DNA of 64,000 nucleotides from contig CANKXO010000007.1 in NCBI GenBank assembly GCA_947487765.1, positions 22,180 to 86,179 of the forward strand, in the 5' to 3' direction. The stretch is from an uncultured Pseudomonadales bacterium. Its GTDB lineage: Bacteria > Pseudomonadota > Gammaproteobacteria > Pseudomonadales > Cellvibrionaceae. The stretch's first letter is position 1, and every line of letters begins with the position of its first letter. This document shows positions 2,899 through 45,874 of the stretch, one piece after another. The notes below the pieces were generated by a model, which did no database searches, was not told the origin of the DNA, and saw only the letters and a program-made list of their open reading frames with translations. A program made the position numbers and the translations under genes.

Positions 2899-2927
2899 AA
2901 AAGCCAGCATTAGCTGGCTTTTTTTTG
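2899..2927 (+). terminator. Rho-independent terminator after rplQ (possibly bidirectional)
   Basis: Stem AAGCCAGC (2901-2908), loop ATTA, stem GCTGGCTT (2913-2920), followed by a T-run. An A-run lies on the other side, and the convergent gene ends at 2929. Confidence 0.8.
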
Positions 2928-2928
2928 C

Positions 2929-4791: not shown

Positions 4792-4846
4792 TTTCAGGGA
4801 AATTGCCGAGATTGTAGAAAGGAGCTTTTATAGACCTAAATGTTAT

Positions 4847-26193: not shown

Positions 26194-26243
26194 GCAGGTC
26201 GGCTTTTGCTCCTGCAAAACCGACATTCACGCCATCCATGGCG
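26194..26243 (+). repeat. Conserved ~50-nt two-hairpin module, copy A (loops GCTCCTGC and ATCCAT)
   Basis: GCAGGTCGGCTTTTGCTCCTGCAAAACCGACATTCACGCCATCCATGGCG aligns with 27383-27429. Shared blocks are GCAGGT, GCTCCTGCAAAACC, CATTC and CCATCCATGG. The stems differ but stay paired. Confidence 0.7.
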
Positions 26244-26498: not shown

Positions 26499-26653
26499 GC
26501 CCCTATCGTCTAGTTGGATAGGACGCTGGGTTTTCAATTCAGTAACGTCGGTTCGCCGCAAGCGGACCGGTCCAAAGTTATAAACTTTGGCCGTTCAAGA
26601 AACGCAAAGCATGCTTTGCTTAACATGTTTCTTTCACCCATCTAGGGGCACCA
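26499..26653 (+). tRNA. tRNA-Glu(UUC)-like gene interrupted by an ~85-nt structured insert in or after the T arm
   Basis: The 5' part is canonical: GCCCCTA-TC-GTCT-AGTTGGATA-GGAC-G-CTGGG-TTTTCAA-TTCAG-TAAC-GTCGG-TTCG. The 3' end TAGGGGC-A-CCA pairs perfectly with the 5' acceptor strand. The intervening sequence forms hairpins CCGC/GCGG, CCAAAGTT/AACTTTGG, and AAGAAAC..GCAAAGC/GCTTTGC..GTTTCTT. Confidence 0.6.
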
Positions 26654-26663
26654 ATAATTTGTT

Positions 26664-26740
26664 ACGTCGATAGCTTAACTGGCAAAAGCTCTGGCCTCCA
26701 AAACCAGGCGATGTAGGTTCGAACCCTACTCGGCGTGCCA
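26664..26740 (+). tRNA. tRNA-Trp (anticodon CCA)
   Basis: Hand-folded cloverleaf. Acceptor ACGTCGA/TCGGCGT, D stem GCTT/AAGC, anticodon loop CTCCAAA, T arm GTAGG-TTCGAAC-CCTAC, then G-CCA encoded. Confidence 0.85.
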
Positions 26741-26749
26741 AACATAAAT

Positions 26750-26909
26750 GCAGTGATAGCCCCAATAGATCGGCAGATTTTTGTTTCATTGAAGATCAGG
26801 AGAGTGCTGGTTCGACAGCTTTGTAGGAGCAAAAGTTGGACGCTTGTATAGGCGGTCGAGAAGCGATTATGCACAAGGATGTGTATAACAATTCCGGCTC
26901 ACTGCACCA
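26750..26909 (+). tRNA. tRNA-like gene, anticodon undetermined, with a ~72-nt four-hairpin insert in the T loop
   Basis: The acceptor GCAGTGA/TCACTGC is perfect, followed by A-CCA. T stem GCTGG (26806-26810)/CCGGC (26894-26898), with TTCGA then the insert from 26816. The anticodon arm is a 7-bp stem (GATTTTT/GAAGATC) with an 8-nt loop GTTTCATT. Confidence 0.55.
26819..26888 (+). repeat. Four-hairpin insert module, copy 1 (inside the T loop of the 26750 gene)
   Basis: P1 CTTT-GTAGGAGC-AAAG; P2 CGCTT-GTAT-AGGCG; P3 GTCG-AGAAG-CGAT; P4 TATGCACA-AGGA-TGTGTATA. Order and spacing match 29484-29551, with compensatory stem changes. Confidence 0.75.
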
Positions 26910-26916
26910 GTTTTAT

Positions 26917-26993
26917 TTCGGTGTGAAGCAGAGTGGTAATGCGCCTGACTGTTAATCAGGAGTTCGTTGGTTCGACCCTAGCCGCCGGAGCCA
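26917..26993 (+). tRNA. tRNA-Asn (anticodon GUU)
   Basis: Acceptor TTCGGTG/CGCCGGA (with G-U pairs), anticodon arm CCTGA-CTGTTAA-TCAGG, T arm GTTGG-TTCGACC-CTAGC, then G-CCA. Confidence 0.8.
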
Positions 26994-27001
26994 ATTTTAT
27001 T

Positions 27002-27083
27002 GAGGGTGTTGAGCAGGTGGTGAGCTCAGCGGACTGTAAATTCGCCGGAAACTATGTAGGTTCGATTCCTTCCACCCTCACCA
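27002..27083 (+). tRNA. tRNA-Tyr (anticodon GUA)
   Basis: Acceptor GAGGGTG/CACCCTC, D stem GAGC/GCTC, anticodon arm GCGGA-CTGTAAA-TTCGC, a 10-nt variable region, T loop TTCGATT, then A-CCA. Confidence 0.85.
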
Positions 27084-27090
27084 AATTTCC

Positions 27091-27168
27091 GGGCCAATAG
27101 CATAATCGGTAAATGCCCCGGCCTCATAAGCCGGAGAAGGAGCGGTTCGAATCCGCCTTGGCCTACCA
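27091..27168 (+). tRNA. tRNA with CAU anticodon (elongator Met or lysidine-dependent Ile2)
   Basis: Acceptor GGGCCAA/TTGGCCT, D stem GCAT/ATGC, anticodon arm CCGGC-CTCATAA-GCCGG, T loop TTCGAAT, then A-CCA. Confidence 0.8.
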
Positions 27169-27186
27169 ATTAAATGATTAGTTAAT

Positions 27187-27261
27187 AGCGGTGTTGAGCA
27201 ATGGCTGCTTTCGGGTTTCATATGCCCGAGCTTGTTGGTTCGATTCCAACCACCGCAACCA
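27187..27261 (+). tRNA. tRNA with CAU anticodon, initiator-like features
   Basis: Positions 1-72 are unpaired (A.A) above the 6-bp stem GCGGTG/CACCGC. The 3' end CACCGCAACCA resembles the fMet end CCCCGCAACCA. The anticodon stem CGGGT/GCCCG carries three consecutive G-C pairs, and the loop is TTCATAT. Confidence 0.75.
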
Positions 27262-27265
27262 AATT

Positions 27266-27356
27266 GGAAGTGTGGCCGAGTGGTAAGGCAGCGGATTGCT
27301 AATCCGTACAGTGATAAATCGTTGCTGCATGAGTTCGAATCTCATCACTTCCTCCA
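27266..27356 (+). tRNA. tRNA-Ser (anticodon GCU), type II
   Basis: Acceptor GGAAGTG/CACTTCC, anticodon arm GCGGA-TTGCTAA-TCCGT, a long variable arm, T arm ATGAG-TTCGAAT-CTCAT, then T-CCA. Confidence 0.85.
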
Positions 27357-27382
27357 AAATACTCCGGTGATGCAATTGGAAG

Positions 27383-27483
27383 GCAGGTTAAGGCTCCTGC
27401 AAAACCTGCATTCCCACCATCCATGGTGGTCACATAGCCCACTTAAAATCGGTTTGTTGCGAGTTCGACTCTCGCCGTCTGCA
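27383..27483 (+). tRNA. tRNA-like gene (anticodon loop CTTAAAA = UAA, Leu-type) carrying the two-hairpin module in its 5' (D-arm) region
   Basis: The T arm GCGAG-TTCGACT-CTCGC is canonical. The 3' acceptor strand CGTCTGC-A pairs with GCAGGT at 27383. The anticodon arm is GCCCA-CTTAAAA-TCGGT (4 of 5 bp), and there is no encoded CCA (TCA instead). An alternative outer pairing is TGATGCA (27368-27374)/TGCATCA (27480-27486). Confidence 0.4.
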
Positions 27484-27492
27484 TCAGTTTTT

Positions 27493-27565
27493 CGTGAGGT
27501 AATTCAATTAGCAGAATGCGATTTTCATAAAATCGGCGATAGTGGTGCAAGTCCACTCTTCACGA
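27493..27565 (+). tRNA. tRNA with CAU anticodon, non-consensus T loop
   Basis: Acceptor CGTGAGG/CTTCACG, D stem ATTC/GAAT, anticodon arm CGATT-TTCATAA-AATCG. The T arm AGTGG-TGCAAGT-CCACT has G instead of T at position 55. The 3' end is A-CCG, so CCA is incomplete. Confidence 0.7.
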
Positions 27566-27574
27566 CCGGTTAAT

Positions 27575-27648
27575 AGCAGCGTGGTGTAACGGTAACACAC
27601 CGGACTTTGACTTCGGTATTTCAGGTTCGAATCCTGGCGCTGTTGCCA
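27575..27648 (+). tRNA. tRNA-Gln (anticodon UUG)
   Basis: Acceptor AGCAGCG/CGCTGTT, D stem GTGT/ACAC, anticodon arm CCGGA-CTTTGAC-TTCGG, T arm TCAGG-TTCGAAT-CCTGG, then G-CCA. Confidence 0.85.
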
Positions 27649-27688
27649 AATAGTATGTTGAGTAGGGTTCTAAAAATATTTAATTTTT

Positions 27689-27763
27689 GTGCGAGTGGCA
27701 GAATGATGATGCGCGGAACTGCAACTTCCGTTTACGCCGGTTTGATTCCGGCCTCGCACTCCA
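27689..27763 (+). tRNA. tRNA-Cys (anticodon GCA)
   Basis: Acceptor GTGCGAG/CTCGCAC, anticodon arm CGGAA-CTGCAAC-TTCCG. The T arm GCCGG-TTTGATT-CCGGC has T rather than C at position 56. Ends T-CCA. Confidence 0.8.
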
Positions 27764-27769
27764 AATTTT

Positions 27770-27914
27770 CTGGATATAGCACAGCCTAGTAGCGTGTTGG
27801 GTTTAACTAAAATACATCCAAGTATTTTGCCCTTCGGGTTCTTCGAAGTTCAAAACGTTCCAGACGTTTTGTGGAGCTCAAAGTTTGTGGGTTCAAACCC
27901 TGCTATCCAGACCA
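27770..27914 (+). tRNA. tRNA-like gene, anticodon undetermined, with ~70 extra nt between the anticodon region and the T arm
   Basis: The acceptor CTGGATA/TATCCAG is perfect, followed by A-CCA. D stem GCAC/GTGT and T arm GTGGG-TTCAAAC-CCTGC are present. The interior holds hairpins AAAACGT-TCCAG-ACGTTTT and TTTG-TGGAGCT-CAAA, the latter resembling the GYAGGAGC hairpin. Confidence 0.5.
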
Positions 27915-27926
27915 ATTAATTTAAAC

Positions 27927-28000
27927 GCGGTGTTGACCGAATGGTTAGGTACCTGCCTTCCAAGCAGAGGAAATGGGTTCGATTCCCATACACCGCTCCA
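27927..28000 (+). tRNA. tRNA-Gly (anticodon UCC)
   Basis: Acceptor GCGGTGT/ACACCGC, anticodon stem CTGC/GCAG with loop CTTCCAA, T arm ATGGG-TTCGATT-CCCAT, then T-CCA. Confidence 0.85.
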
Positions 28001-28008
28001 AAATTTAA

Positions 28009-28082
28009 TGAAGGTTGGCTTAGTGGCTGAGCACCGGACTTTTAATCCGGCTAGATGGGTTCGATCCCCATACCTTCAACCA
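28009..28082 (+). tRNA. tRNA-Lys (anticodon UUU)
   Basis: Acceptor TGAAGGT/ACCTTCA, D stem GCTT/GAGC, anticodon arm CCGGA-CTTTTAA-TCCGG, T arm ATGGG-TTCGATC-CCCAT, then A-CCA. Confidence 0.88.
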
Positions 28083-28115
28083 ATTACAATAAAACAACTA
28101 AAAGGAGATCGTATT

Positions 28116-29312
28116 ATGGCGATTAAAAAAGTATTGGCGCCGCATAAAGATCAGCGGTTGCCTGTAAAAATTTGGACGGATGATATTGATTACAGCACGC
28201 AGGCTCAGTTGAGTCGTGTAGCGAACTTACCATTCGTTTATAAGCATGTAGCAGCGATGCCTGATGTACATCTCGGAAAAGGCGCCACTGTTGGTTCAGT
28301 GATTGCAACCGATAAAGCTATTATCCCTGCAGCTGTGGGTGTGGATATTGGATGTGGAATGAATGCAGTGAGATTATCTATTAAAGCAAAAGATTTGCCT
28401 GATAGCCTAAAATTGATTCGAAACGGAATTGAATCAGTTGTACCTTTAGGTCCCGGAGGTCAACATCGTGACCCCAAAATTGCTGGTGGTCATGATATAT
28501 CAATGCGTCTATGTACTATTTTTGAAAAACACCCGAAGTTAAGTAAGCGCGTTAAAGTGAATGGGTTTGCGAAACAATTAGGAACGCTGGGCTCAGGAAA
28601 TCATTTCATTGAATTATGTTTAGATGAAAATGATGACGTGTGGATTATGTTGCATTCAGGGAGTCGTGGAGTTGGCAATAAAATCGGTATGTACTTTATC
28701 GAAATTGCTAAACGAGAAATGGAAAAATGGATGATTCACTTACCTGATAAAGACTTGGCTTATCTATCTGAAGGGTCAGAATATTATGATGACTATATTG
28801 AAGCAGTTTCTTGGGGGCAAGATTATGCGGCATTGAATCGCACGCATATGATGAATGCAGTAATGCTAGAACTACGTAAGTATTTACCTGCGTTTACAAT
28901 CACACAAGAGGCTATCAATTGCCACCATAATTATGTTGAAAAGGAAAATCATTACGGCAAAAACGTATGGGTAACGCGTAAAGGCGCAATCCGTGCGAGA
29001 AAGGATGATCTTGGTATTATTCCCGGGTCCATGGGTGATAAAAGTTTTATTGTTCGTGGTAAAGGTGAATCTGAATCATTTTGTTCTTGTTCCCATGGTG
29101 CGGGTCGACGATTGAGTCGTACTGCAGCTGCAAAAACTTTTTCCGTTGCTGATCTCGTATCAGCTACTGAAGGAATAGAATGTCGTAAAGACAGGGGTGT
29201 CATTGATGAAATTCCAATGGCATATAAGCCTATCGATAGCGTGATGGATAACCAAACTGATCTAGTGGATATAGTTCATACACTTCGACAAGTCGTCAAT
29301 GTAAAAGGCTAG
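28116..29312 (+). CDS. rtcB: RNA-splicing ligase RtcB (copy 1)
   Basis: The start was moved to the ATG at 28116, which has the RBS AAGGAG 8 nt upstream. The track ORF start at 27885 runs through three tRNA genes. RtcB motifs are present: GVDIGCGMN, GSGNHFIE, HSGSRGVGN, CHHNY, PGSMGDKS, SCSHGAGR. Confidence 0.93.
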   Translation: MAIKKVLAPHKDQRLPVKIWTDDIDYSTQAQLSRVANLPFVYKHVAAMPDVHLGKGATVGSVIATDKAIIPAAVGVDIGCGMNAVRLSIKAKDLPDSLKLIRNGIESVVPLGPGGQHRDPKIAGGHDISMRLCTIFEKHPKLSKRVKVNGFAKQLGTLGSGNHFIELCLDENDDVWIMLHSGSRGVGNKIGMYFIEIAKREMEKWMIHLPDKDLAYLSEGSEYYDDYIEAVSWGQDYAALNRTHMMNAVMLELRKYLPAFTITQEAINCHHNYVEKENHYGKNVWVTRKGAIRARKDDLGIIPGSMGDKSFIVRGKGESESFCSCSHGAGRRLSRTAAAKTFSVADLVSATEGIECRKDRGVIDEIPMAYKPIDSVMDNQTDLVDIVHTLRQVVNVKG

Positions 29313-29358
29313 AAAGGACTTAGCCTTTTCTTTCACCTCTTTCCTCATTTTTAATTTA

Positions 29359-29432
29359 GCCCAATTGGCATAGTGGTCGTGCAGCTGCTTTGTAAGCAGC
29401 AGAGACAGGTTCAATTCCTGTATTGGGCTCCA
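29359..29432 (+). tRNA. tRNA-Thr (anticodon UGU)
   Basis: Acceptor GCCCAAT/ATTGGGC, D stem GCAT/GTGC, anticodon arm GCTGC-TTTGTAA-GCAGC, T arm ACAGG-TTCAATT-CCTGT, then T-CCA. Confidence 0.85.
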
Positions 29433-29441
29433 GTTTACATC

Positions 29442-29593
29442 GCCTGATTAGTTCAATTGGACTTAGAGCATCCGCCTACGACAATTTTGCAGGAGCAAAA
29501 ATTGGGCGTCTATAGAGGCGATCGTGAAACGATAATGTGCAGGACGCATATTACAAACGGGAAGATGCGGGTTCGAATCCTATTCAGGTGCCA
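29442..29593 (+). tRNA. tRNA-Arg(ACG)-like gene with the four-hairpin insert in the anticodon loop
   Basis: The 5' half is canonical: GCCTGAT-TA-GTTC-AATTGGACTTA-GAGC-A-TCCGC-CTACGA. The insert follows from about 29482. The 3' part GCGGG-TTCGAAT-CCTAT-TCAGGTG-CCA has a weak T stem, and no clean 3' anticodon-stem strand was found. Confidence 0.45.
29484..29551 (+). repeat. Four-hairpin insert module, copy 2 (inside the anticodon loop of the 29442 gene)
   Basis: P1 ATTTT-GCAGGAGC-AAAAT; P2 CGTCT-ATAG-AGGCG; P3 ATCG-TGAAA-CGAT; P4 ATGTGC-AGGAC-GCATAT. Collinear with 26819-26888. Confidence 0.75.
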
Positions 29594-29601
29594 AATTTAT
29601 T

Positions 29602-29678
29602 ACTCTCGTAGCTTAATTGGATAGAGCGTCTGTCTTCGAAACAGAACGGTGTTGGTTTGATTCCAACCGAGAGTGCCA
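29602..29678 (+). tRNA. tRNA-Arg (anticodon UCG)
   Basis: Acceptor ACTCTCG/CGAGAGT, D stem GCTT/GAGC, anticodon arm TCTGT-CTTCGAA-ACAGA, T arm GTTGG-TTTGATT-CCAAC (T at position 56), then G-CCA. Confidence 0.82.
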
Positions 29679-29917
29679 ATAATTATTATTAATAAACCCG
29701 AGAATCTTTAGGTGTGGCCGTGGCAGATTGATAAATTTACCGGGAGTAAATTTAGACGCGGGAGAGAAGCGACGGCGCCCGTAGGGGTTGTAACATGGAT
29801 GTTACAAACCAATGTGCGCTTAACTTTGGCTTAAGTGCCCTTGGTTTTTGGAAAGGGGAGTTCAGGTCGCATCGGTCACCCCTAAAGGTTTTTACTAATA
29901 GAAAAGGAGGTCAAGCA

Positions 29918-30211
29918 ATGAGACTTGCTATAACGCGATCAGGTTTTTATAACGCTGATCTTTATTGCGCTGATACTCGTACAGCTAAAAGAGTGTTGCG
30001 TGAAAAAAATATTTCCATATTGGCTATCGACTATTATCTAGTTGGCCAGGGAAATGGTTGCGATATTATTGATTGGGCTAAAAGAAATGCAGTTTTGCCT
30101 AATTTTATCGTTGTTATTGAACGTAATCGCAACAAACGAGCCTTATTATCGAATACATTACGAAATATAGGTTATCGCTCTGGTGATGATACTACCTTTA
30201 TAAGGCATTAA
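29918..30211 (+). CDS. Small receiver-fold-like protein, possibly a degenerate 'cyclic-phosphate processing receiver' (cREC)-type domain
   Basis: The start was moved to the ATG at 29918, which has a strong RBS AAGGAGG. The upstream part of track ORF 29795.. overlaps a structured RNA region. The 97-aa protein contains ...ILAIDYYLVGQGNGCDIIDWAK...PNFIVVIERNRNKRA... This resembles from memory the hhhDhDLG...G.dhh.Wh...hhhHS.N layout of small REC-like proteins that accompany RtcB, but the catalytic-type residues are replaced. Confidence 0.45.
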   Translation: MRLAITRSGFYNADLYCADTRTAKRVLREKNISILAIDYYLVGQGNGCDIIDWAKRNAVLPNFIVVIERNRNKRALLSNTLRNIGYRSGDDTTFIRH

Positions 30212-30250
30212 ATTTAGTTAAAGCGACCACTATGATTAATTGAGAATAGG

Positions 30251-30814
30251 ATGATGAATATTCAAATTTTGCAGCTATCGAAGTCAGGTCACCCAATGTC
30301 TTGGGTGAACCGTGAAGAAGCCGCAACACTGTATGCAAAAAATAGGGTGTTATGGGAGCTGGGTGACGAAGTTATTCCAATTGTCGGCGGTATTAATCGC
30401 TTGGGCATTCAAAGTCGCTTCGATATGGCACCAATTATTGCTTGTGATGGTGATGTGAAACAACCTCGTTTACGACCATCGTTAAGTAATCGTATGCTGT
30501 TTCGCCGAGACGATTACCGATGCTTGTATTGTGGTGTTCAGTTTAATCACGACGGATTAACGCGGGACCATATTGTGCCGCGTATTCAAGGTGGTTTAGA
30601 TCGTTGGGAAAATGTGGTTGCTGCTTGTAAACGCTGTAATCACAGTAAGGGTGGTCGAACGCCAGAGCAGGCAGGGATCAAGCTATTGGCCATTCCATTT
30701 GTGCCGAATCCGTTTGAGTTTCTGTTTTTGGCAAATCGACATATTCTGGCTGACCAGATGGATTATCTTGCGACAAGCTTTTCGTCAAAGCGAGACTGGA
30801 AAAAAGTGGCTTAA
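30251..30814 (+). CDS. HNH endonuclease
   Basis: The HNH core is present: CLYCGVQFNHDGLTRDHIVPRIQGGLDRWENVVAACKRCNHSKGG. 187 aa. Two hairpins follow (30806-30826 and 30837-30862). Confidence 0.85.
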   Translation: MMNIQILQLSKSGHPMSWVNREEAATLYAKNRVLWELGDEVIPIVGGINRLGIQSRFDMAPIIACDGDVKQPRLRPSLSNRMLFRRDDYRCLYCGVQFNHDGLTRDHIVPRIQGGLDRWENVVAACKRCNHSKGGRTPEQAGIKLLAIPFVPNPFEFLFLANRHILADQMDYLATSFSSKRDWKKVA

Positions 30815-30991
30815 CTATTAAGCCACCCACATATTTGGAATACAGGTATTAACCTGTATTCCATACCGATGTTTATACGTATGTTGGCGAAACAGCGGCT
30901 CTGGTTCTGAATGCCAGGCTGGCACAGTCATGTTTTATGTCCTGTGTACCGATTCACTAACACGTTAAACAGTATGCTCTGAAAAAGCATA

Positions 30992-31064
30992 GTTTTTGTA
31001 GCTCATAGGGTAGAGCAATCGACTCATAATCGATGGGTAGCAGGTTCGATTCCTGCCTCAAACA
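30992..31064 (+). tRNA. tRNA with CAU anticodon (fourth CAU gene), weak acceptor stem, no encoded CCA
   Basis: D stem GCTC/GAGC, anticodon arm ATCGA-CTCATAA-TCGAT (perfect), T arm GCAGG-TTCGATT-CCTGC. The acceptor GTTTTTG/CTCAAAC pairs at only 5 of 7 positions. The 3' end is A-CAG. Confidence 0.65.
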
Positions 31065-31424
31065 CAGTCAGTTTTAATAAACTGAAGGAAAAGCCGAGAG
31101 GCTGAGGTTCGAATCCTCATTTGGTCTACTAAACCAAATATAAAACAAGAGGCTCATAGCAACGTAATGCTGTTATAGATTATGTTGCGTTGACATTAAT
31201 ACCGTTAATGATGGGTTAAGGTATTGCGTAGTAAATAATAAGTTTACCTCACTATCAACAGCTAAGGATGGTGTCCTAGGGATGGGGATAATCAAGAGTG
31301 ATTAGGTTAGTGTGGAGCAACCGCTGTATTTGTCTACCCATTACATTTAAGTTATTTACCGTACTCATGGCAAATGGGCCTCGCCATTATAGTCATTGGA
31401 AGAAATAAATAAGGGAGAATAATA

Positions 31425-32576
31425 ATGATTCTTTGGAAAACAATCGATATTGCGGAACATGAACGTGTATTACTTTATGTCCGTGATCAATTTAAACAAG
31501 TGCTAGGCCCAGGTCGGCATCGTGTCTCGACCTTGAAGGGAAAAGTTCGCCAGGAAACCTATGATATTACCGAAGTAGTATTCAGGCATCCTAAAGAAAA
31601 ATTTTTGCTGTCACACTACCCAGAAAAACTGGCAATGCACCTTGAGCAGTTTGACTTAAAAGATACTGAAGTGGGCTTGTTATATCGAAATGGCCATTTA
31701 ATGAATGTGTTGGCACCTGGTAGTTTATTTACAGTTTGGAAAGGTGTTGAGGATATTCGTGTTGACGTTATCGATATTAATAACCACTATCAGATAGAAG
31801 AGTCTTTAATTGGCTTATTGGGGCGAGGCATTAAAATTGGTCAAAGCCGAGAAGTCGTTAATGCGATTGCTTATGCAGAGGTAGTTGATGAGCATGTAGG
31901 TTTATTGCTGGTTAACGGTAAGCTAGAAAAGATCTTGCAACCGGGTAGTTACGGCTTCTGGAAATATAACCGTTCAATTGCGGTTAAAATGCTTGATCTT
32001 CGTTTACAAGCAATGGAGGTTAGTGGCCAAGAGATTCTGACCAAAGATCGCGTGAGTTTGCGTATTAACTTAACTGGTAGTTATAAAATTAAAGATCCTC
32101 AAATTGTTGCCTCTAAGGTGAATGATTACGCAGGTTTTATCTATCGTGAGTTGCAATTAAGTTTGCGAGAAATTGTAGGCACACAATCATTAGATGGATT
32201 GTTAGAAGATAAAGATGCTTTAAATTCTGTAATTACTCAGAGTACACGAGAAAAATTAGCGGAATACGGTATTCAGTTAATGAGTGTCGGGGTTAAAGAT
32301 ATTATTTTACCTGGTGAAATGAAGCAGATTCTGAATCGAGTAGTAGAGGCGCAAAAAGAGGCTGAAGCTAATTTGATTAAGCGTCGTGAGGAAACTCAGG
32401 CAATGCGTTCATTACATAATGCTGCCAAGATGATGGAAAACAACCCTGTGTTGTTACGTTTAAAGGAATTAGAAGCATTAGAAAGAGTGACTGGGAAAAT
32501 CGATAAGATTTCTGTCTATGGTGGCCTTGATAGTGTTCTTAATGACTTGGTAAAACTGGCGCCGGTCAAAACCTAA
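31425..32576 (+). CDS. SPFH/Band-7 (slipin-like) domain protein
   Basis: 383 aa. The C-terminal half is SPFH-like (...VSLRINLTGSYKIKDPQIVA...GIQLMSVGVKDIILPGEMKQILNRVVEAQKEAEANLIKRREE...). No clear N-terminal TM helix was seen. Confidence 0.8.
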   Translation: MILWKTIDIAEHERVLLYVRDQFKQVLGPGRHRVSTLKGKVRQETYDITEVVFRHPKEKFLLSHYPEKLAMHLEQFDLKDTEVGLLYRNGHLMNVLAPGSLFTVWKGVEDIRVDVIDINNHYQIEESLIGLLGRGIKIGQSREVVNAIAYAEVVDEHVGLLLVNGKLEKILQPGSYGFWKYNRSIAVKMLDLRLQAMEVSGQEILTKDRVSLRINLTGSYKIKDPQIVASKVNDYAGFIYRELQLSLREIVGTQSLDGLLEDKDALNSVITQSTREKLAEYGIQLMSVGVKDIILPGEMKQILNRVVEAQKEAEANLIKRREETQAMRSLHNAAKMMENNPVLLRLKELEALERVTGKIDKISVYGGLDSVLNDLVKLAPVKT

Positions 32577-34531: not shown

Positions 34532-34689
34532 CTGCCTGTCTCCCTAATATAAATAAGGATAAATGTTGAGTGTTAAAAAAATGGATAATGATAGTTGTTA
34601 CAAGAACAAATAAAGAAGAGAAGTGCGCAAGATAAAAGGGTGCCAGCGTGCTCAATGTTTCCTTCGTAGAGCTCTTAGTACTGGATTGA

Positions 34690-34785
34690 TCAACTCGACG
34701 CGGCACGCCCCTACTATCGCTCATTGACTTCATGGAAGTCATACCGCAATAGCGATAGTAGGGGCTGTGCCGCCCTATGAAGATC
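34690..34785 (-). ncRNA. Highly structured non-coding element immediately upstream of the RT (candidate RT template or msr-msd-like RNA)
   Basis: A 22-bp interrupted inverted repeat joins GCGGCACGCCCCTACTATCGCT (34700-34721) to AGCGATAGTAGGGGCTGTGCCGC (34751-34773). It encloses a second hairpin TGACTTC-ATG-GAAGTCA (34725-34741). It lies in the 400-nt gap between the SWIM gene and the RT. Strand and ends are not determined. Confidence 0.45.
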
Positions 34786-34931
34786 AGGCCAGTGACGCGT
34801 GTGTAGTCTATAAACCAGAACGGCGATGCACCGCTCAAATTGCAAGGTAGATAAGTCACGCTGACACCTGTGCTAGTATAGCAGTGTTGTTAGGTTTTAA
34901 AAGAGCGCTATTAAAATTCTTCATGATCTCT

Positions 34932-36572: not shown

Positions 36573-36643
36573 ATTTTTGCCTGAGAAATTTTTCTGAAAA
36601 TTATGAATCTAATGCGTTTTTGTATAATTTTTATATAGCGTTT

Positions 36644-39600: not shown

Positions 39601-39820
39601 TGGATACAACAACACTATCAAATAGCTTCTCTGCTTTGCTAAGCTCAACAGCTTCAGGGGTTTTAGTGCCTTCTCTTAATTGATTGCCGCGACGCCCGTA
39701 TCGAAAATTAACGAGATAACGTTCATCTTTTCGGCTTGCTAACTCACATAAATCAACTTCATAAACTTTGTCGGAATTGCCTTCCTGATACACCAATCGA
39801 GATTGCTTGATTAGTCGCAT
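36644..39820 (-). CDS. WGR-domain protein with long helical (HEAT/ARM-like) repeat region
   Basis: 1058 aa. An N-terminal WGR domain is present (LVYQEGNSDKVYEVDL...YLVNFRYGRRGNQLREGTK...AEKLFDSVVVSKVNKGYW). The remainder is leucine-rich and alpha-helical in character. Confidence 0.8.
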   Translation of the reverse strand: MRLIKQSRLVYQEGNSDKVYEVDLCELASRKDERYLVNFRYGRRGNQLREGTKTPEAVELSKAEKLFDSVVVSKVNKGYWDREQAKQSPTTTSPTLAGVPSSNLASDDFPFKLIEQILNHLPNEKETKSRSRMIWRLGELGHRDCEPIANAIVPYIKKGHWLEDYSIAWALGRMVATQHKAVLETLRQHKQAQVCHIAFESQLLISDQTSRKALLGSHWQHFPAQFKSAVMEGNSSTAHQQLGALLSHGASDNVNNTNQLLVLCYQLSLAYPILHQALLSQLAIIPLTPGYFRGIRSIYKASELRLDGSVFGLLAQRIETAPAFFRNDWDWAWLPGEGSIKPSKELKKANAKLTFSHRTRDYFRRRSWRVLRRIGQAGDLRYVDMATESLLAINDEHGSKPRTSEVYRWDNSGDNWQRQLISSNEYGPFASFLSLNHILFEHHPGYQLAPSGRVWIKSDESNTDGTSLINGSRTECFAELWDQKPSHALRLLKTSRCELVHPFARRILENQPSFCQKISPVDLALLLNSNYASTCEFALAIVRERIKQDDLSSELLIALLSSSLTEARVLGKQSLLRFKINDDISLLTSLLLILHSDVQSDIKTAVCQQKISGRNAEKLLQAIVDSIFLENSNLSEKHAEYLADFALENLNDAIKHFPLTSLQRLIHDEKVPRKILGAKLLLGHKISYGDIPDSLLQAIHDSSSAEVRGIGAALLGKQADKDLIKQLDLLVGLYCKGDTQERASLLSIFSRLMTNSQQGSEQIENTLLALTFKSEEQPGQHEELIAFFTSLAQSHLTKLDNDMLWRLLQAQSICAQRVGAITLTERNADIFSVKQWAILGQHSDVSVRQFAFQAYEKNVDEIKQYSRDALRILNSNWDDARTFGFDFFRQQYSQEDWSPEIVIFICDSIRDDVQSFGREILQSFFKAEYGPEYLLKLSQHPSNNVQLFVSSFLEEYAAGIPSHILSLQAYFTTALSQINKGRVCKDRILLFLLREAEKDISVATMVMPLLERISLTMVHKDKAALIKAMLKLQSLYPDIASPLTAKKVPIKQPASLGV

Positions 39821-40200: not shown

Positions 40201-41460
40201 ATGCAATTAAATAATAAAAAAGTTTACTTAGTTGGCGGAGCTGTCCGTGACGAACTATTGAATCGCCCAGTTTCAGATCGAGACTGGGTGGTGATTGGTG
40301 TGACTCCAGAAATGTTGATTAAGCAAGGCTATCGGCAAATCGGTAGTGACTTTCCTTGCTTTTTGCATCCTGAAACCAAAGATGAATATGCACTGGCACG
40401 TACGGAGAAAAAATCAGGAAGCGGCCATACAGGGTTTGTGTGTGATTTTAGTCCTGAGGTAACTCTCGAAGAAGATTTATCTCGGCGCGACCTCACCATC
40501 AATGCCATTGCTAAAACAGTAGAGGGTGAATATGTTGATCCTTATGGAGGCAGAGAAGATTTAGAGAATCGAATATTGCGCCATGTATCAGATGCATTTG
40601 CTGAAGACCCATTGCGTGTGTTACGCGTTGCTCGTTTTGCCGCTCGCTACGCAGAGTTAGGTTTTACGGTACACCCAAGTACATTAGCCTTAATGGCTCA
40701 GTTAGTCAGTTCTGGTGAACTATCAGAATTAACACCAGAGCGAGTCTGGAAAGAAATGTCTCGTGCATTAACAGAGCCTCGTCCTAGTGAGTTCTTTCGT
40801 GTGCTTCGTGCCTGTGGTGCTTTGTCGGTACTATTACCCGAAGTAGATTGCTTATTCGGTGTTCCTCAGCCACCCCAACATCATCCTGAAATTGATACCG
40901 GCGATCATGTAATGATGGTGGTTGATATCGCTAAAGAGCGCTTTGATTCTATTAATATCACTTGGGCTGCCTTAATGCATGATTTAGGAAAAGGGCTGAC
41001 GCCTGAAGAGGAGTGGCCCAAGCATATCCGTCATGAAATTAAAGGTGTGCCATTAGTTGAGGCTGTTTGCGAGCGTTATAAAGTTCCGCGTGATTTTAAA
41101 ACATTAGCAATGTTAGTTTCTGAGCACCATTTGCGTTGCCATAAATTATTAGAGATGAGACCAAAATCCATTATGCGCTTATTAGAAGCGCTGGATGCTT
41201 TTAGGCGGCCAGAGAGGGTTAAATATTTTGCGCAAGCCTGCGAAGCCGACGCCAGAGGTCGCTTAGGTTTAGAAGATAGAGATTACCCACAATCGTCACT
41301 ATTAATAAAATGCGGTGAAGTGGGGAAGGATATAGATATTAAGCCTTTACTGGATGAAGGCTACCAAGGCTTGAAGCTGGCGGAACAGATTCGCCGTTTA
41401 CGACTAGGGGCGATTAAGAGGTTTATGGCAAATTATCGAAAAGAAATATTAGGGAAATAA
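40201..41460 (+). CDS. cca: Multifunctional CCA-adding tRNA nucleotidyltransferase with HD domain
   Basis: Starts VYLVGGAVRDELLNRPVSDRDWVV. The class-II NTase head is followed by an HD region (HHPEIDTGDHVMMV...HDLGK). 419 aa, like gammaproteobacterial Cca. Confidence 0.92.
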   Translation: MQLNNKKVYLVGGAVRDELLNRPVSDRDWVVIGVTPEMLIKQGYRQIGSDFPCFLHPETKDEYALARTEKKSGSGHTGFVCDFSPEVTLEEDLSRRDLTINAIAKTVEGEYVDPYGGREDLENRILRHVSDAFAEDPLRVLRVARFAARYAELGFTVHPSTLALMAQLVSSGELSELTPERVWKEMSRALTEPRPSEFFRVLRACGALSVLLPEVDCLFGVPQPPQHHPEIDTGDHVMMVVDIAKERFDSINITWAALMHDLGKGLTPEEEWPKHIRHEIKGVPLVEAVCERYKVPRDFKTLAMLVSEHHLRCHKLLEMRPKSIMRLLEALDAFRRPERVKYFAQACEADARGRLGLEDRDYPQSSLLIKCGEVGKDIDIKPLLDEGYQGLKLAEQIRRLRLGAIKRFMANYRKEILGK

Positions 41461-41464
41461 TAAG

Positions 41465-42367
41465 ATGAGCAGTAAAACTCAGCATTTAATTAAACAAGGT
41501 TTACTCAAGTCTCCGCCTAAGTTTTTGGAAACCGGGGTACAGTATGAAGTGGTTATGGGCTCTATTGCCTATGGTGTTGCTGAAGATCACTCTGATATGG
41601 ATATTTATGGTTTTGCCATTCCACCACGAGACTGGGTATTTCCTCACTTAAGAGGAGAAATTTCAGGTTTTGATGAATCTGGCCCTCAATTTGAGCAAGT
41701 GCAGCAACATCATATGTTGGATAAGTCTGCACGTGGAGGTAAAGGCAAGGAGTATGATTTGGTCATCTATTCGATTATTAAATACTTTCGCTTACTGATG
41801 GATAATAACCCTAATATTATTGATTCTTTATTTGTGCCGCGCAATTGTGTGCTTTATAGCACTGCTGTTGGTGAGATGGTCCGCGAAAACCGTCATCTAT
41901 TCTTGCATAAAGGTTGTTGGGCAAAGTTCAAAGGTTATGCTTATTCACAAGTACATAAAATGCGAACAAAGGTTCCAGAAGGTGGCCGTCAAGCGATCAT
42001 TGATGAATATGGTTATGATGTAAAATTTGCCTATCATGTTGTTCGGTTACTGAATGAAGTCGAGCAAATATTAATTGAAAAAGACCTTGATTTGGCACGA
42101 AATAAAGAGCAATTAAAATCGATACGCCGTGGCGAATGGACACAGCAAGCCATTGAAGAATATTTTACTAATAAAGAAAAACAACTTGAGCAAACTTATC
42201 TGGACAGTGCCTTGCCTGCGTTACCGGATAAAGCAGCTATTAAAAAGTTATTGTTGGAATGCTTGGAGCATCATTACGGCTCATTATCTGAATGTATTGT
42301 TCAGGAAGATGAGGCTTTGATCGCTATTCGAGAAATTGAAACGATAGTGCAACGCTTGAAAAAGTAA
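41465..42367 (+). CDS. Pol-beta-superfamily nucleotidyltransferase (RNA-repair-associated 'RlaP'-like family, from memory)
   Basis: The NTase signature GSIAYGVAEDHSDMDIYGF (GS...DxD) is present. 300 aa. It starts 4 nt after the cca stop. Confidence 0.65.
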   Translation: MSSKTQHLIKQGLLKSPPKFLETGVQYEVVMGSIAYGVAEDHSDMDIYGFAIPPRDWVFPHLRGEISGFDESGPQFEQVQQHHMLDKSARGGKGKEYDLVIYSIIKYFRLLMDNNPNIIDSLFVPRNCVLYSTAVGEMVRENRHLFLHKGCWAKFKGYAYSQVHKMRTKVPEGGRQAIIDEYGYDVKFAYHVVRLLNEVEQILIEKDLDLARNKEQLKSIRRGEWTQQAIEEYFTNKEKQLEQTYLDSALPALPDKAAIKKLLLECLEHHYGSLSECIVQEDEALIAIREIETIVQRLKK

Positions 42368-42864
42368 GCCTTTATTTTTTAATTGAACCACTTTGTATTT
42401 GTTAACCTATAAAAATACTCATTAATATAGTTGTAGTTAATTTTTGTAAGGAAATGTTATAAAAATTATGAATAAAGATATTGATATATAATTTTAATAT
42501 GACTATAGTGCGCGCAGTTTTTACAAATCACCTTTAATCAATACTCTACAGGAGGCTCAAGTATGTTGTATCTAAATAATCAAATCGCATTGTTGGGTTT
42601 GTCTGTATCTTGTTCTTATAGCTAACATTTTTGTTAACGCTATAGCTATCTTTCAGATAAATCCTCTTAGCTAAACGTCTTAACTGTACGTTATAGGTAG
42701 TTTTGCGTAATTTTTTAAGCTAATTCTTGTTGGTCAAATTCTATCGACCATACATTTGCATTTTTTTATGCGGTTAGCGATTAATCTGTATCGCCTTTTG
42801 TTTCAACTCGAAAATATTTTTTGAGGGGGCAATGTCGTGCCTAAAAACATGAGTAGAAATTTTA

Positions 42865-44091
42865 ATGGACACTTATATTAAAAAAATTAATACGCTGGTT
42901 GATCGGCAGGCGAGAGTTGTTATCTTTGATGATAATTGGCTTGAAGATTCTGCTGTTGAGCAGTTGAAAAGAACAATGGAATTAGACGGCATGTTGAGAG
43001 GTATCGGTATGCTTGACCTGCACCCAGGTAAGGGGCAACCAATTGGTGCAGCGTTTGTAACGTGTAATGCCATCTATCCTCACCTTGTCGGGAGTGATAT
43101 CGGTTGTGGTATGGGATTATGGGATTTAGATATTCCAGTCCGAAAAGTTAAATTGGATAAATGGGAGAAGCAATTAGTTGGCCTTGATGAATTTTGGGAT
43201 GGATATCCAAATGATCGGTTACAGAAAAAAGATATTGATACAACTGATACTTTTTTATTATCTGAAAACGGTAAGTTAGGAACCATCGGTGGTGGTAATC
43301 ATTTTGCAGAGCTACAGAAAATTGACAGTATTATTGATTCTGTTGCGTTTAAGCAGTCAGGTCTCAATCATCAGTCTGTTAAATTACTAGTGCATAGTGG
43401 TTCGAGAGGTCTGGGCCAAAAAATTCTCAGGCGCTATGTTGATGATTTTGGCTCAAGCGCTATTTCGACAAATGAACAACCTGAACTTGGTCAACATTAT
43501 ATTCAGCAACATAACTACGCTATCAGATGGGCTGAAGTGAATCGTGATGTCATTGCAGACCGGTTCTGTGAACAGCTCAAAGCGCAGCGGAGATTGGTAT
43601 TGGATGTTGCTCACAACAGGGTTGACCCATTGGCTGAGGAATACGCTGAAGCGATGGGGTTATTAACAAAGAGGCTGCCAGGAAATGGCAACAAAAAATA
43701 CTGGATACACCGTAAAGGCGCAAGCCCAACTAATGAAGGGTTGGTCATGATACCGGGGTCTCGTGGTAGCTTGAGCTACCTTGTTAAGCCTCGTTTGTCG
43801 AATATTCATAGTCTTTCTCAAGGTGGTTTTTCATTGGCCCATGGTGCAGGACGTAAATGGAAGCGAAGTGATGTTCGAGGACGATTAGAAAGCCGCTATA
43901 AAGTAAAAGATTTGGAAAAAACAGCCTTGGGTAGTCGAGTTATTTGTAAGCAACGCGACTTACTGTATGAGGAAGCACCTCAGGCTTACAAAAATATAAG
44001 TCATGTAATAAGTGATTTGGTTGGCGCTGGTCTTGTCGATATTGTTGCAACATTTAAACCGTTACTGACTTATAAGACACGGAGGGTATAA
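42865..44091 (+). CDS. rtcB: RNA ligase RtcB, PrfH-associated paralog (copy 2)
   Basis: RtcB motifs are present: GSDIGCGMG, GGGNHFAEL, HSGSRGLG, AHNRV, PGSRGSLSY, LAHGAGRKW. prfH begins 2 nt after its stop. Confidence 0.9.
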   Translation: MDTYIKKINTLVDRQARVVIFDDNWLEDSAVEQLKRTMELDGMLRGIGMLDLHPGKGQPIGAAFVTCNAIYPHLVGSDIGCGMGLWDLDIPVRKVKLDKWEKQLVGLDEFWDGYPNDRLQKKDIDTTDTFLLSENGKLGTIGGGNHFAELQKIDSIIDSVAFKQSGLNHQSVKLLVHSGSRGLGQKILRRYVDDFGSSAISTNEQPELGQHYIQQHNYAIRWAEVNRDVIADRFCEQLKAQRRLVLDVAHNRVDPLAEEYAEAMGLLTKRLPGNGNKKYWIHRKGASPTNEGLVMIPGSRGSLSYLVKPRLSNIHSLSQGGFSLAHGAGRKWKRSDVRGRLESRYKVKDLEKTALGSRVICKQRDLLYEEAPQAYKNISHVISDLVGAGLVDIVATFKPLLTYKTRRV

Positions 44092-44093
44092 AT

Positions 44094-44789
44094 ATGAAAA
44101 TAGTGAAAGGAGAAAATGAAAAAAATATTGCATGGTTGCAAGTAACCTCTGGTCAAGGGCCGAAAGAATGCGCTTGGGTTGTCGCACGATTAGAGCCGAT
44201 CATTTTGCAAGAGGCTAAAAAGGCTGATCTGTCTGCTGAGCGCATTGAAGCTTTGGCTTTTGATAAATTGCTACGGAAGCAAAATCTTATCGAGACTGAT
44301 GCTTATTTATCGATATTAATCCGCTTGCAAGGGAGGGGAGTCGACGAGTTTGTTCAATCTTGGCAGGGAACGATTAAATGGCAAGGCGAAAGCCCCTATC
44401 GTCCCAAGCATAAGCGATTTAACTGGTTTGTCGGTGTTGCAACACTTGCTATACCAGAGAAGCAAAACGTTGAGTTAAGTAGTTTATCTAAAGATATTGA
44501 TTTTGAATCAATGCGAACAAAGGGGCCAGGTGGGCAACATGTAAATAAAACGAATAGCGCGATTCGTGCGACGCATCGACCAACAGGTTTGCAAGTACGG
44601 GTTGAAACGGACCGTTCTCAGCATAGGAACAAGCAAATAGCATTGGAGCGTTTGCAAATGTTGCTAGCTCAAAGAGGTAGTAATGAGAAAAAATCAATAG
44701 AGCATGCACGCTGGCTGCAACACTATGATGTGAAAAGGGGCAGTCCTACACGCATATTTTATGGGAAAGGATTTACCGAAAACCATTGA
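44094..44789 (+). CDS. prfH: Peptide chain release factor H
   Basis: The GGQ motif region RTKGPGGQHVNKTNSAIRATHRPTG and the N-terminal LQVTSGQGPKECAWVV are typical of PrfH. It is tightly coupled to rtcB. Confidence 0.88.
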   Translation: MKIVKGENEKNIAWLQVTSGQGPKECAWVVARLEPIILQEAKKADLSAERIEALAFDKLLRKQNLIETDAYLSILIRLQGRGVDEFVQSWQGTIKWQGESPYRPKHKRFNWFVGVATLAIPEKQNVELSSLSKDIDFESMRTKGPGGQHVNKTNSAIRATHRPTGLQVRVETDRSQHRNKQIALERLQMLLAQRGSNEKKSIEHARWLQHYDVKRGSPTRIFYGKGFTENH

Positions 44790-44917
44790 TCTATTAAAAA
44801 ACTGGAGTAATGAAATGAATAATCAACAAACCCCGTTGGGCATTTATCGAAATAAGAAGCGAATTTTTACGCCTTCCAAATGGCAGGTTGCTGTAATGAA
44901 CGAAAGAGAATACGAAG

Positions 44918-45874
44918 ATGAAACAGGAAGAGTTAAGCGAGGTGTTGGATTGCCTAGGGAATGAAAGAACACTTTTTTACTACTTTAAAGATCGCTATTG
45001 CTTAGATTTAATTGGCTGGTATATGGATAAAACAAAAAGTCGGTCATTGTTGATTAGGGATTTAAATAAAAGCGGCTTGAAAAATATTCTTCAGAAACCA
45101 GTCATGAGAGAGATTATTAAAAATTGCGGCCATGGTTTTTTGACAAAAGAAATCATAAAAGCCTTCTGGTTCCATGACTTTTTAACGTTCACTTTAACAT
45201 TGGATCATTGGGGAGAAGGGGATAGAGGTTATGACCAAACCTCCAGAAACCAAAAGAATTTAGTGTTGCAGCTGAATTTTGACAATAAACATACGAGTGA
45301 ATATCAGCGTTTATTAAAGCCTGACGACCACTATGGGCCTTTTGAGTGCTGGTGTCACCCTGTTAGGCAGGATGCTAAAAAGACGATGTCGTGGGTAAGA
45401 ATGGATTTCGACTTTACAACCAATGAAGCGCTAATCGAAGAGGTTCAAAATGATTGGTTGCGACAGGCAAATGGAGGATTAACTCGTGTTAAAAAAAGTT
45501 TATCGAGAAAATCAACGCTTAAGCCAGGTGATATTGTTAGCGGCATTCATTGTGAATATAAAGACTTGGAATATTATGTTGAAGAAGTACTGAAGCCTTA
45601 TCGAAAGCTATGGGCAGAAGCTTCTATGCTGGCAGCCATACAATTTATACGTAATGAGTTAGGTATTAATACGATTTACTATCATAGCTTCAGTACAGGT
45701 AATAAGTTGAAGAAGGTTTATGGTTTGCCACCTAGATCAATGTATACACAATTGCCTAAAAAATTTGGTTTTGAATTGACTGAAGAAGCACCTGAGTTTT
45801 TAGCAAGAGATAAACATGCTAAGCGTTACATTAAGGCCATTGAAAACCCGCGATGGTATCGTATGGCGTTATAA
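44918..45874 (+). CDS. Hypothetical protein, 318 aa, downstream of rtcB-prfH
   Basis: A long ORF on the same strand as rtcB-prfH. No family was recognised. The segment ...WVRMDFDFTTNEALIEEVQNDW... could be a D...ExQ/K nuclease-like motif, but this is speculative. Confidence 0.6.
   Translation: MKQEELSEVLDCLGNERTLFYYFKDRYCLDLIGWYMDKTKSRSLLIRDLNKSGLKNILQKPVMREIIKNCGHGFLTKEIIKAFWFHDFLTFTLTLDHWGEGDRGYDQTSRNQKNLVLQLNFDNKHTSEYQRLLKPDDHYGPFECWCHPVRQDAKKTMSWVRMDFDFTTNEALIEEVQNDWLRQANGGLTRVKKSLSRKSTLKPGDIVSGIHCEYKDLEYYVEEVLKPYRKLWAEASMLAAIQFIRNELGINTIYYHSFSTGNKLKKVYGLPPRSMYTQLPKKFGFELTEEAPEFLARDKHAKRYIKAIENPRWYRMAL

Follow-up and report, generated by a model that had tools for sequence, protein, structure and literature searches.

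Long arrays of transfer RNA (tRNA) genes (L-arrays) are known from every class of Proteobacteria and from Cyanobacteria, where an HNH endonuclease gene typically lies alongside and rtcB is a neighbor or is co-regulated; the Anabaena array is induced by translational stress (PMC8421152). RNA-repair operons form a second described system. In Rtc operons with Y RNAs (Salmonella rsr-yrlBA-rtcBA), the RNA ligase RtcB is encoded together with a tRNA mimic, and published work on relatives reports that RtcB rejoins tRNA halves, RlaP fills in lost nucleotides, and RtcB2-PrfH rescues cut ribosomes. A third element, the tRNA associated with band 7 (b7a-tRNA), was predicted by Burroughs and Aravind in 2016; a secondary source calls it experimentally unvalidated and states that it "strongly resembles an authentic tRNA." Here, we analyzed 64,000 nucleotides (nt) of an uncultured Pseudomonadales bacterium of the Cellvibrionaceae (GenBank assembly GCA_947487765.1, contig CANKXO010000007.1, positions 22,180 to 86,179; hereafter, the window), and in particular its four tRNA genes with a CAU anticodon, labeled W1 to W4 in order of position. 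We find that these genes specify four different RNAs: an Ile2-like tRNA (W1), an initiator-like tRNA (W2), a damaged elongator-Met-like tRNA (W3), and a tRNA look-alike of a neighboring RNA-repair operon (W4). The best explanation of the whole, which we consider fairly likely, is that four distinct CAU RNAs reside in a translation-repair island which a Cellvibrionaceae-type gammaproteobacterium acquired horizontally.

The locus belongs to known kinds of system, namely an L-array, an RtcB repair island, and a b7a-tRNA (Table 1). As in the L-arrays described in 2021 (PMC8421152), we observed a dense run of ~20 tRNA genes that is unlike, and distinct from, the housekeeping tRNA genes, was horizontally acquired (its flanks differ among genomes), adjoins an HNH endonuclease gene, is linked to rtcB, and includes some pseudogenes. 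It differs from them in that RtcB lies inside the array, the repair island is wider (SPFH, b7a-tRNA, CCA-adding enzyme, RlaP, and RtcB2-PrfH), the host is gammaproteobacterial, and several genes carry a 75-nt structured insert. Similar to the Rtc operons and RtcB2-PrfH systems, RtcB is encoded with a tRNA mimic, and RtcB2 is encoded with a PrfH-like release-factor homolog next to RlaP; however, there is no Rsr/Ro, RtcA, or RtcR in the window, and the mimic, unlike YrlA, is a complete cloverleaf with an anticodon loop.

Table 1. Features of the tRNA array and the repair island, in window coordinates
Feature	Position	Strand	Evidence
Long tRNA array with embedded RtcB gene	26503..29678	+	13 callable genes and at least 6 interrupted or chimeric genes
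75-nt module in the T loop of a Phe-derived gene	26814..26896	+	RNAalifold; covariance model R2, 94 bits
W1, CAU tRNA, Ile2-like, predicted TilS substrate	27091..27168	+	ARAGORN, Rfam, TilS pairs
W2, CAU tRNA, initiator (fMet)-like	27187..27261	+	Identity nucleotides, nearest reference, array relatives
W3, CAU tRNA, elongator-Met-like, degenerate copy	27493..27567	+	Rfam 48.6 bits, orthologs
RtcB RNA ligase inside the array	28116..29312	+	Pfam PF01139, E = 7.5e-128
75-nt module in an Arg(ACG)-derived gene (29441-29595), after C38	29480..29561	+	RNAalifold, model R2
97-amino-acid open reading frame, weak match to cREC_REC (cyclic-phosphate processing receiver)	29918..30211	+	Pfam E = 7e-4, under the curated cut-off
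HNH endonuclease	30251..30814	+	Pfam HNH_5 and HNH
W4, b7a-tRNA, tRNA look-alike	30992..31065	+	Rfam 61 bits; position before SPFH
Conserved leader between b7a-tRNA and SPFH, about 330 nt	31066..31424	+	Alignment of six loci, conserved blocks
SPFH/Band-7 protein	31425..32576	+	Pfam PF01145
Second repair block: CCA-adding enzyme, RlaP, RtcB2, PrfH-like RF-1 domain protein, 318-amino-acid protein	40201..45874	+	Pfam

ARAGORN called 14 tRNA genes in the window, 4 of which (W1 to W4) have the anticodon CAT; all four are on the plus strand and each was labeled Met. Their scores on the Rfam tRNA model were 56.6 bits for W1, 42.9 for W2, 48.6 for W3, and 61.0 for W4 (gathering score 29). The anticodon loops (CTCATAA, TTCATAT, TTCATAA, and CTCATAA, respectively) match those given in a preliminary description of this DNA, which took the gene starts for the loop positions. 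We assigned isotypes from identity nucleotides together with nearest-reference identity, with E. coli tRNAfMet, tRNA-Met, and tRNA-Ile2 references verified at 100% identity against E. coli genomes, and compared the window with loci of relatives (labeled L001, L002, and so on; L001 is the closest relative). The anticodon CAT and A73 in all four genes, and the uniform Met label, would fit simple elongator tRNA-Met duplicates that raise the capacity for Met decoding. This reading has next to no chance of being correct and is, judged from the sequences, already contradicted: each gene is less than ~70% identical to every reference in the alignment, the four rows differ widely, and acceptor stems, D arms, and anticodon stems all vary, so the genes are not of one isotype. 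Moreover, one gene has a 1:72 mismatch, one has the determinants for TilS, and one is a member of another family, in which the anticodon varies.

We observed that W2 combines an A1·A72 mismatch with G2-C71, C3-G70, G4-C69, and A73-CCA in the acceptor stem (3' end CACCGCAACCA), in agreement with the unpaired 1-72 position already reported for this gene. The D and anticodon arms have A11-U24, G29-C41, G30-C40, and U31·G39, with the loop UUCAUAU. Sequence identity of W2 amounts to 68% with E. coli tRNAfMet, compared with 47% for tRNA-Met and 51% for tRNA-Ile2. The determinants of the formylating enzyme Fmt are a 1:72 mismatch together with pairs 2:71 and 3:70 (PMC5389676). The three GC pairs of initiators are 29:41, 30:40, and 31:39, of which G30 is the most crucial and the first and third pairs have natural variants; A1339 and G1338 of the 16S ribosomal RNA contact the first two pairs. 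Compared with E. coli tRNAfMet (metZWV/metY), W2 shares the unpaired 1:72, G2-C71, C3-G70, G4-C69, G5-C68, A11-U24, G29-C41, G30-C40, CAU, and A73, and differs in having A·A rather than C·A at 1:72, U·G rather than G-C at 31:39, and the loop UUCAUAU rather than CUCAUAA, hence U38-G39 in place of A38-C39. Three consecutive G-C pairs had been noted in the anticodon stem; they are present but occupy 28:42, 29:41, and 30:40, one step off the canonical 29-31/39-41. The third pair of the canonical GGG/CCC element, G31-C39 (natural variants G·U), is thus missing. The unpaired 1:72 with G2-C71 and C3-G70 would permit formylation and exclude EF-Tu, and G29-C41 with G30-C40 would permit selection in the P site. 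Counting against efficient initiation by W2, the U·G at 31:39 is the reverse of the natural G·U, and U32 and U38 replace C32 and A38; we therefore term W2 initiator-like and not a proven initiator.

A metagenome scan with the exact anticodon arm of W2 gave 88 matches, 5 of them within CAU tRNAs and 4 of these in tRNA clusters. We aligned these four array relatives with W2 and with E. coli tRNAfMet. None of the six sequences (6/6) had a pair at 1:72 (A·A, U·C, A·C, U·C, A·C, and C·A), the remaining 20 pairs were standard in every cell, and G2-C71, C3-G70, G4-C69, G29-C41, and G30-C40 were invariant; U31·G39 was common to W2 and its four array relatives. The shared anticodon arm was built into the search by the exact-arm query and so weighs against reading it as independent evidence, but the shared 1:72 mismatch and acceptor sequence were not. 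The same arm had a single match in a viral scan, which was not a tRNA. Two of the four relatives sit in 22-gene arrays, these being the metagenomic arrays L105 and L116 with their W2-like initiators. Two RtcB-linked arrays also contain genes of this type that were missed by ARAGORN: an initiator-like gene in L053 (2776-2849) with the canonical GGG/CCC arm, the loop CUCAUAA, A11-U24, and an A1-U72 pair, and a truncated W2-like remnant in L095.

The preliminary description also raised initiator tRNA as a target of VapC-type toxins, a reasonable link. Enteric VapC cleaves tRNAfMet between A38 and C39, and we found U38 and G39 at these positions in W2 and its array relatives. This change is consistent with escape from VapC-type toxins, although it is no proof of it. 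Array initiator-like tRNAs that keep the formylation and P-site elements and change the nucleotides of the VapC cut site would offer a testable idea of why arrays carry an initiator of their own.

W1 has the features expected of a tRNA-Ile2. The TilS determinants are pairs 4:69 and 5:68 in E. coli (C4:G69, C5:G68) and G3:C70 with C4:G69 in Burkholderia, where inversion of G3:C70 or C4:G69 nearly abolishes activity (PMC11947777). W1 (G1·U72, G2-C71, G3-C70, C4-G69, C5-G68, A73, loop CUCAUAA) contains both published acceptor sets. Pairs 3:70/4:69/5:68 read C-G/G-C/G-C in W2, U-A/G-C/A-U in W3, and U-A/U-A/U·C in W4; the search for TilS determinants suggested in the preliminary description thus singles out W1. 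G3:C70, C4:G69, and C5:G68 would let TilS turn C34 into lysidine, and AUA would then be read as Ile. A housekeeping-type CAU gene outside the array of L002 (1591-1667), which resembles E. coli ileX, begins with GGGCC as W1 does. Identity to this gene is 61% for W1 and 75% for the W1 ortholog in L002 (9317), in both cases above any other reference. The L002 housekeeping Ile2 gene differs from the array gene. The ortholog retains GGGCC and G1·U72, with compensatory alterations at 7:66 and in the D and T stems.

Relative to bacterial tRNA-Ile2 (E. coli ileX and L002 1591-1667), W1 has the same CAU, A37, A38, A73, C4:G69, and C5:G68, and it shares G3:C70 and the 5' acceptor strand GGGCC with the L002 housekeeping gene. 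It differs in the G1·U72 wobble, A12-U23 for U12-A23, G29-C41 for C29-G41, a variable region of 6 nt, and a mismatched A49·C65. The determinants bearing on presumed aminoacylation by IleRS are therefore mixed: A73, A37, and A38 are present, while 12:23 is A-U and 29:41 is G-C. Several points weigh against assigning W1 to tRNA-Ile2. It lacks U12-A23 and C29-G41, which are minor IleRS determinants in E. coli; it contains the A49·C65 mismatch; its copy in L001 has a broken acceptor stem and was not called by ARAGORN; and the TilS determinants come from E. coli and Burkholderia, from which the specificity of the host's own TilS may differ.

W3 resembles an elongator tRNA-Met, with CAU, A73, a paired position 1:72 (C1-G72), G4-C69, and A5-U68, and with neither TilS pairs nor initiator features. 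The closest reference to W3 and its orthologs is an elongator-Met-like gene of another gammaproteobacterium (L020; 55-61%). The window copy is damaged: the D loop AATTAGCA lacks GG (G18G19), the T loop TGCAAGT has G at the near-universal U55, there is a G6·U67, and the 3' end reads ACCg. Hence, the nucleotides of the tertiary fold (G18 G19, U55 C56) are incomplete and a usable 3' end is absent from this copy. By comparison, the orthologs at L001 9550 and L095 4347 have a D loop with GG, the T loop TTCAAGT, and an ACCA end, and compensatory changes are seen in the anticodon and T stems of the orthologs. We suggest that W3 would be an elongator-Met-type tRNA whose window copy is probably impaired after the loss of tertiary-fold nucleotides. 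Counting against the assignment, W3 has few of the Met determinants of E. coli MetRS (U4-A69, A5-U68, (C3-G70), and (C32)): it shows only A5-U68 and G2-C71, without U4-A69, C3-G70, or C32, so that its identity is deduced largely by exclusion.

Taken as a set, W2, W3, and W1 bear out the suggestion that the CAU genes cover initiator Met, elongator Met, and Ile2, on identity elements and on nearest-reference comparison alike. The idea of a four-fold redundancy does not survive, since we find three functionally distinct species and one tRNA mimic. fMet, Met, and Ile2 serve three different functions, and three CAU genes are therefore what any near-complete set needs; they are the normal minimum and involve no redundancy. 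By our arithmetic, drawing 13 of ~40 anticodon species at random would yield all three CAU species in ~3% of cases. A CAU cluster in a tRNA array can accordingly be recognized as the initiator/Met/Ile2 trio that every decoding set requires.

The array spans 3.2 kb and was described as having 19 genes, which is roughly right if the 13 callable genes are counted with at least 6 interrupted or chimeric tRNA-derived genes; the gene at 30992, however, stands apart from it. Intact genes are confined to Trp, Asn, Tyr, Ile2(?), fMet, Ser, Met(?), Gln, Cys, Gly, Lys, Thr, and Arg, whereas those for Glu, Phe, Leu, His, and Arg-ACG are interrupted or chimeric. Because at least six array genes are disrupted, the array is not self-sufficient here, and with the Met-like gene itself damaged the proposal of a self-sufficient backup decoding set fails in this genome. 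The following genes are all intact or simpler in L001: the Glu gene (26503-26655) with an ~80-nt insert in the T loop; a Leu chimera (27357-27489) in which the 5' part of Leu(UAA) is joined to the 3' end of Leu(CAA) by a deletion; an uncalled tRNA-like gene (27771-27915) with a 35-nt extra segment; and a His homolog (29700-29880) with inserts in the D loop and T arm and the anticodon changed to TTG. The Phe-derived gene is also disrupted in its D region relative to L001. Judged from these sequences, the array is decaying in this genome. Decay runs in opposite directions for W1 and W3 between the window and L001, which suggests weak selection on individual array genes.

We considered whether all four CAU genes are pseudogene relics of a decaying, horizontally acquired and possibly phage-derived array, with no present role. 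Besides the interrupted or chimeric genes (at least six relative to L001), this would account for the absence of G18G19, U55, and the CCA end from W3, the broken acceptor stem of the W1 ortholog in L001, and the two acceptor mismatches in W4; moreover, the RtcB cluster of a relative includes Ca. Endobugula sertula, a symbiont, and gene decay is common with that lifestyle. On the other hand, the Rfam tRNA model gives W1, W2, and W4 scores of 43-61 bits and all three fold into regular cloverleaves, compensatory changes occur across genomes in the W1, W3, and W4 families, the position of the b7a-tRNA is conserved in 16 loci that extend to distant Gammaproteobacteria, and the protein genes of the island are intact. 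We judge the relic explanation unlikely, if deserving of some weight, and retain four distinct RNAs in a repair island as our reading. The decay of neighboring genes and the broken W1 of L001 do weigh against it in part, as individual genes may be non-functional, and so does the outcome of scans for sigma-54 promoters, sigma-70 promoters, and terminators, which were at or below chance, with no promoter signal standing out. Separately, we obtained no support for a known phage source of the array: megablast of the 4.9-kb region against phages returned nothing, and a distant search returned only weak T-arm matches. We also set aside an Rfam match to YrlA at 27434-27545 (24 bits versus a gathering score of 69).

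Next to these array genes, W4 is of another kind. It had been counted as an extra copy in the array, yet 1.3 kb separates it from the last array gene, the SPFH gene (31425) begins 355 nt downstream of it, and homologs occur 290-540 nt upstream of SPFH in 15 other loci in which SPFH adjoins RtcB (16 with the window). A tRNA-like gene with a near-authentic cloverleaf beside Band-7/SPFH in an RtcB neighborhood agrees in position and fold with the b7a-tRNA as outlined in the secondary source, except that the window RtcB lies upstream of the b7a-tRNA and not downstream of SPFH as in that outline. On this sequence comparison, W4 is not an array member but a b7a-tRNA, a tRNA mimic whose gene directly precedes SPFH in the SPFH/RtcB operon. 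A "tRNA-Met" call beside an SPFH gene is thus a b7a-tRNA, and annotation pipelines will mislabel it. Our literature searches found no paper that ties RtcB, SPFH, and tRNA-like RNAs together.

The b7a family has a fixed scaffold: the D arm is ATAGCTCA..GGGTAGAGC, the anticodon stem is often the same (ATCGA/TCGAT), and the T arms resemble one another. In 17 sequences, pairing reaches 99-100% in the D, anticodon, and T stems, with numerous compensatory changes, and 80% in the acceptor stem; over all stems it is 93%, with covariation. In W4, U5·C68 and U6·U67 are mismatched and no CCA is encoded; the Cellvibrionaceae copies likewise tend to oppose two pyrimidines at 6:67. Nearly all b7a-tRNAs lack an encoded CCA, whereas every callable array gene except W3 encodes it. 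The anticodon is CAU in seven loci and CAG, GAU, CGU, UUU, GUA, UAG, GUU, UUA, or UUG elsewhere; the loop of one locus could not be assigned by ARAGORN, some loops lack U33, and one b7a-tRNA has a Tyr anticodon on a class-I body (no long arm). W4 is probably not used for decoding, and the fixed body with its changeable anticodon loop suggests a bait or sensor role in RNA-repair operons rather than that of a decoder. Homologs were observed in L001, L003, L004, L011, L017, L027, L030, L039, L041, L047, L052, and L053, and further in L072, L076, L081, L088, and L095. The element at this position is more divergent in L007, and neither ARAGORN nor covariance model R1, built on the W4 family, found a b7a-tRNA in L009. 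As an isotype classifier, model R1 was rejected, as it behaved as a general tRNA model with which Met and Ile2 bodies were inseparable.

These properties bear on a further explanation, in which W2 and W4 stand outside translation and serve anticodon nucleases as decoys or sense them: W2 would soak up or evade initiator nucleases of the VapC type, and W4 would present a bait anticodon loop that, once cleaved, feeds the RtcB system. It would accommodate the U38-G39 of W2 and its array relatives in place of the VapC cut site A38|C39, the hypervariable b7a loop on a fixed scaffold (with loops lacking U33 and the Tyr anticodon on a class-I body), and the scarcity of CCA among b7a-tRNAs, and sponge and competitive-inhibitor roles have been proposed in the literature for array tRNAs and YrlA. 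However, W2 keeps every acceptor feature for formylation and an encoded CCA, which would be superfluous in a pure decoy, we identified no toxin gene in the window, and the argument is inferential throughout. We regard a decoy function for both RNAs as rather improbable, and continue to read W2 as an initiator-like tRNA and W4 as the b7a-tRNA of the repair operon.

Downstream of W4, the conserved leader contains a GYCGARAGRC hairpin followed by a T-arm-like one at 31103-31119, and may be a further structured RNA.

The window is bacterial chromosome with UvrA, AcrB-type, and LysR-type genes, and the island occupies ~26.5-45.9 kb of it. The same island core is found between different chromosomal genes in L001, L002, L003, L004, L006, and L095; since the flanking genes differ among genomes, the core was acquired horizontally. 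RtcB homologs are 78-95% identical in Cellvibrionaceae (Aurantivibrio, Simiduia), and tRNA genes are often upstream of the homologs in Cellvibrionaceae and other Gammaproteobacteria; the RtcB of L002 is 89% identical to that of the window, and its cluster includes the Ca. Endobugula sertula protein. We found the 97-amino-acid reading frame kept after RtcB in L001, L088, and L095, HNH homologs at the same position in L001, L002, L003, L006, L053, L072, and L095, and SPFH paired with RtcB in 17 loci. The genes of the second repair block come directly after SPFH in L001. The conserved 318-amino-acid protein of this block has no Pfam match, and its homologs are encoded before or after RtcB in many gammaproteobacterial loci. 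By analogy with the Anabaena array, translational stress would induce expression of the array tRNAs, to serve as spare or toxin-absorbing tRNAs; RtcB, the CCA-adding enzyme, RlaP, and RtcB2-PrfH would mend cut tRNAs and ribosomes; the CCA-adding enzyme would also complete 3' ends, as W3 and W4 need. Across the genomes compared, the architecture of array, HNH, b7a-tRNA, SPFH, and RtcB is widespread.

Several minor features of the island and its relatives were also seen. A type XIII retron (RT_XIII, SWIM_XIII, and WGR_XIII; PADLOC models) lies on the minus strand at 32750-39820, between SPFH and the CCA-adding enzyme, an insertion that is absent from the otherwise syntenic L001. Two metagenome-assembled genomes of unrelated Gammaproteobacteria, L053 and L072 (~400-5800), have 25-gene arrays, after which HNH, b7a-tRNA, SPFH, and RtcB come in the order seen in the window. 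Small open reading frames matching ArfA (alternative ribosome-rescue factor A) in Pfam lie inside the arrays of L003 (9162-9302) and L095 (3641-3796); no clear counterpart of the ArfA-like reading frame was found in the window.

Finally, we examined the 75-nt module that interrupts two array genes of the window (Table 1). Further copies are present at L001 8750-8832 and 11371-11452, L002 8958-9040, 9212-9294, and 11282-11363, and L003 9547-9627. Six copies share a four-hairpin fold in which RNAalifold predicted 26 pairs, 14/26 with compensatory changes, and AGGA or GGA occurs in loops 1 and 4. Model R2 recovered three additional matches, two strong and one weaker (27 bits, E ~0.01), each of them in a Cellvibrionaceae array. 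Insertion is exact: in T loops it falls between A58 and N59, in Phe (window, L001, and L002), Tyr-like (L002), and Leu-UAG (L003) genes, and in the Arg-ACG gene (window, L001, and L002) it falls after C38; both target contexts are YCGA|C. The Leu-UAG gene is uninterrupted by the module in L001 and L002, as is the Arg-ACG gene in L095. No Rfam match to the module was found, and no ribozyme, intron, or small RNA family was detected over the inserts at E<=1. The module is too short for a group I intron, and no bulge-helix-bulge motif of the archaeal type was seen by eye at the junctions. A viral scan for hairpin 1 gave chance-like matches only, with no tRNA context.

One could read the module as a new bacterial tRNA intron, cut by a cellular or self-cleaving activity, with the exons rejoined by the RtcB of the array. 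Pointing this way are the presence or absence of the module in the same gene across genomes, the restoration of a canonical 7-nt T loop upon excision in silico, the strong covariation, and the lack of an Rfam match; if true, this would be the first bacterial tRNA splicing without group I introns, and our literature searches found no paper on bacterial T-loop introns. However, the Arg "exons" flanking the module are less well kept than the module itself in the window and in L002, which favors a functional RNA displayed by a tRNA scaffold no less than it favors an intron. We consider the intron doubtful, a long shot. The module may instead be a regulatory RNA scaffolded by tRNA, with its two GGA loops binding a protein or the anti-Shine-Dalgarno sequence, which fits equally well. 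In either case, an undescribed structured RNA insert in array tRNA genes sits next to an RNA ligase gene. A hairpin identical to hairpin 1 of the module (TTTTGC-AGGA-GCAAAA) stands alone on the minus strand at 26203-26218, near the start of the array, and another lone copy, at L095 ~4622-4637, was also observed; the lone hairpin adjoins a conserved CCATGGAYGGC motif.

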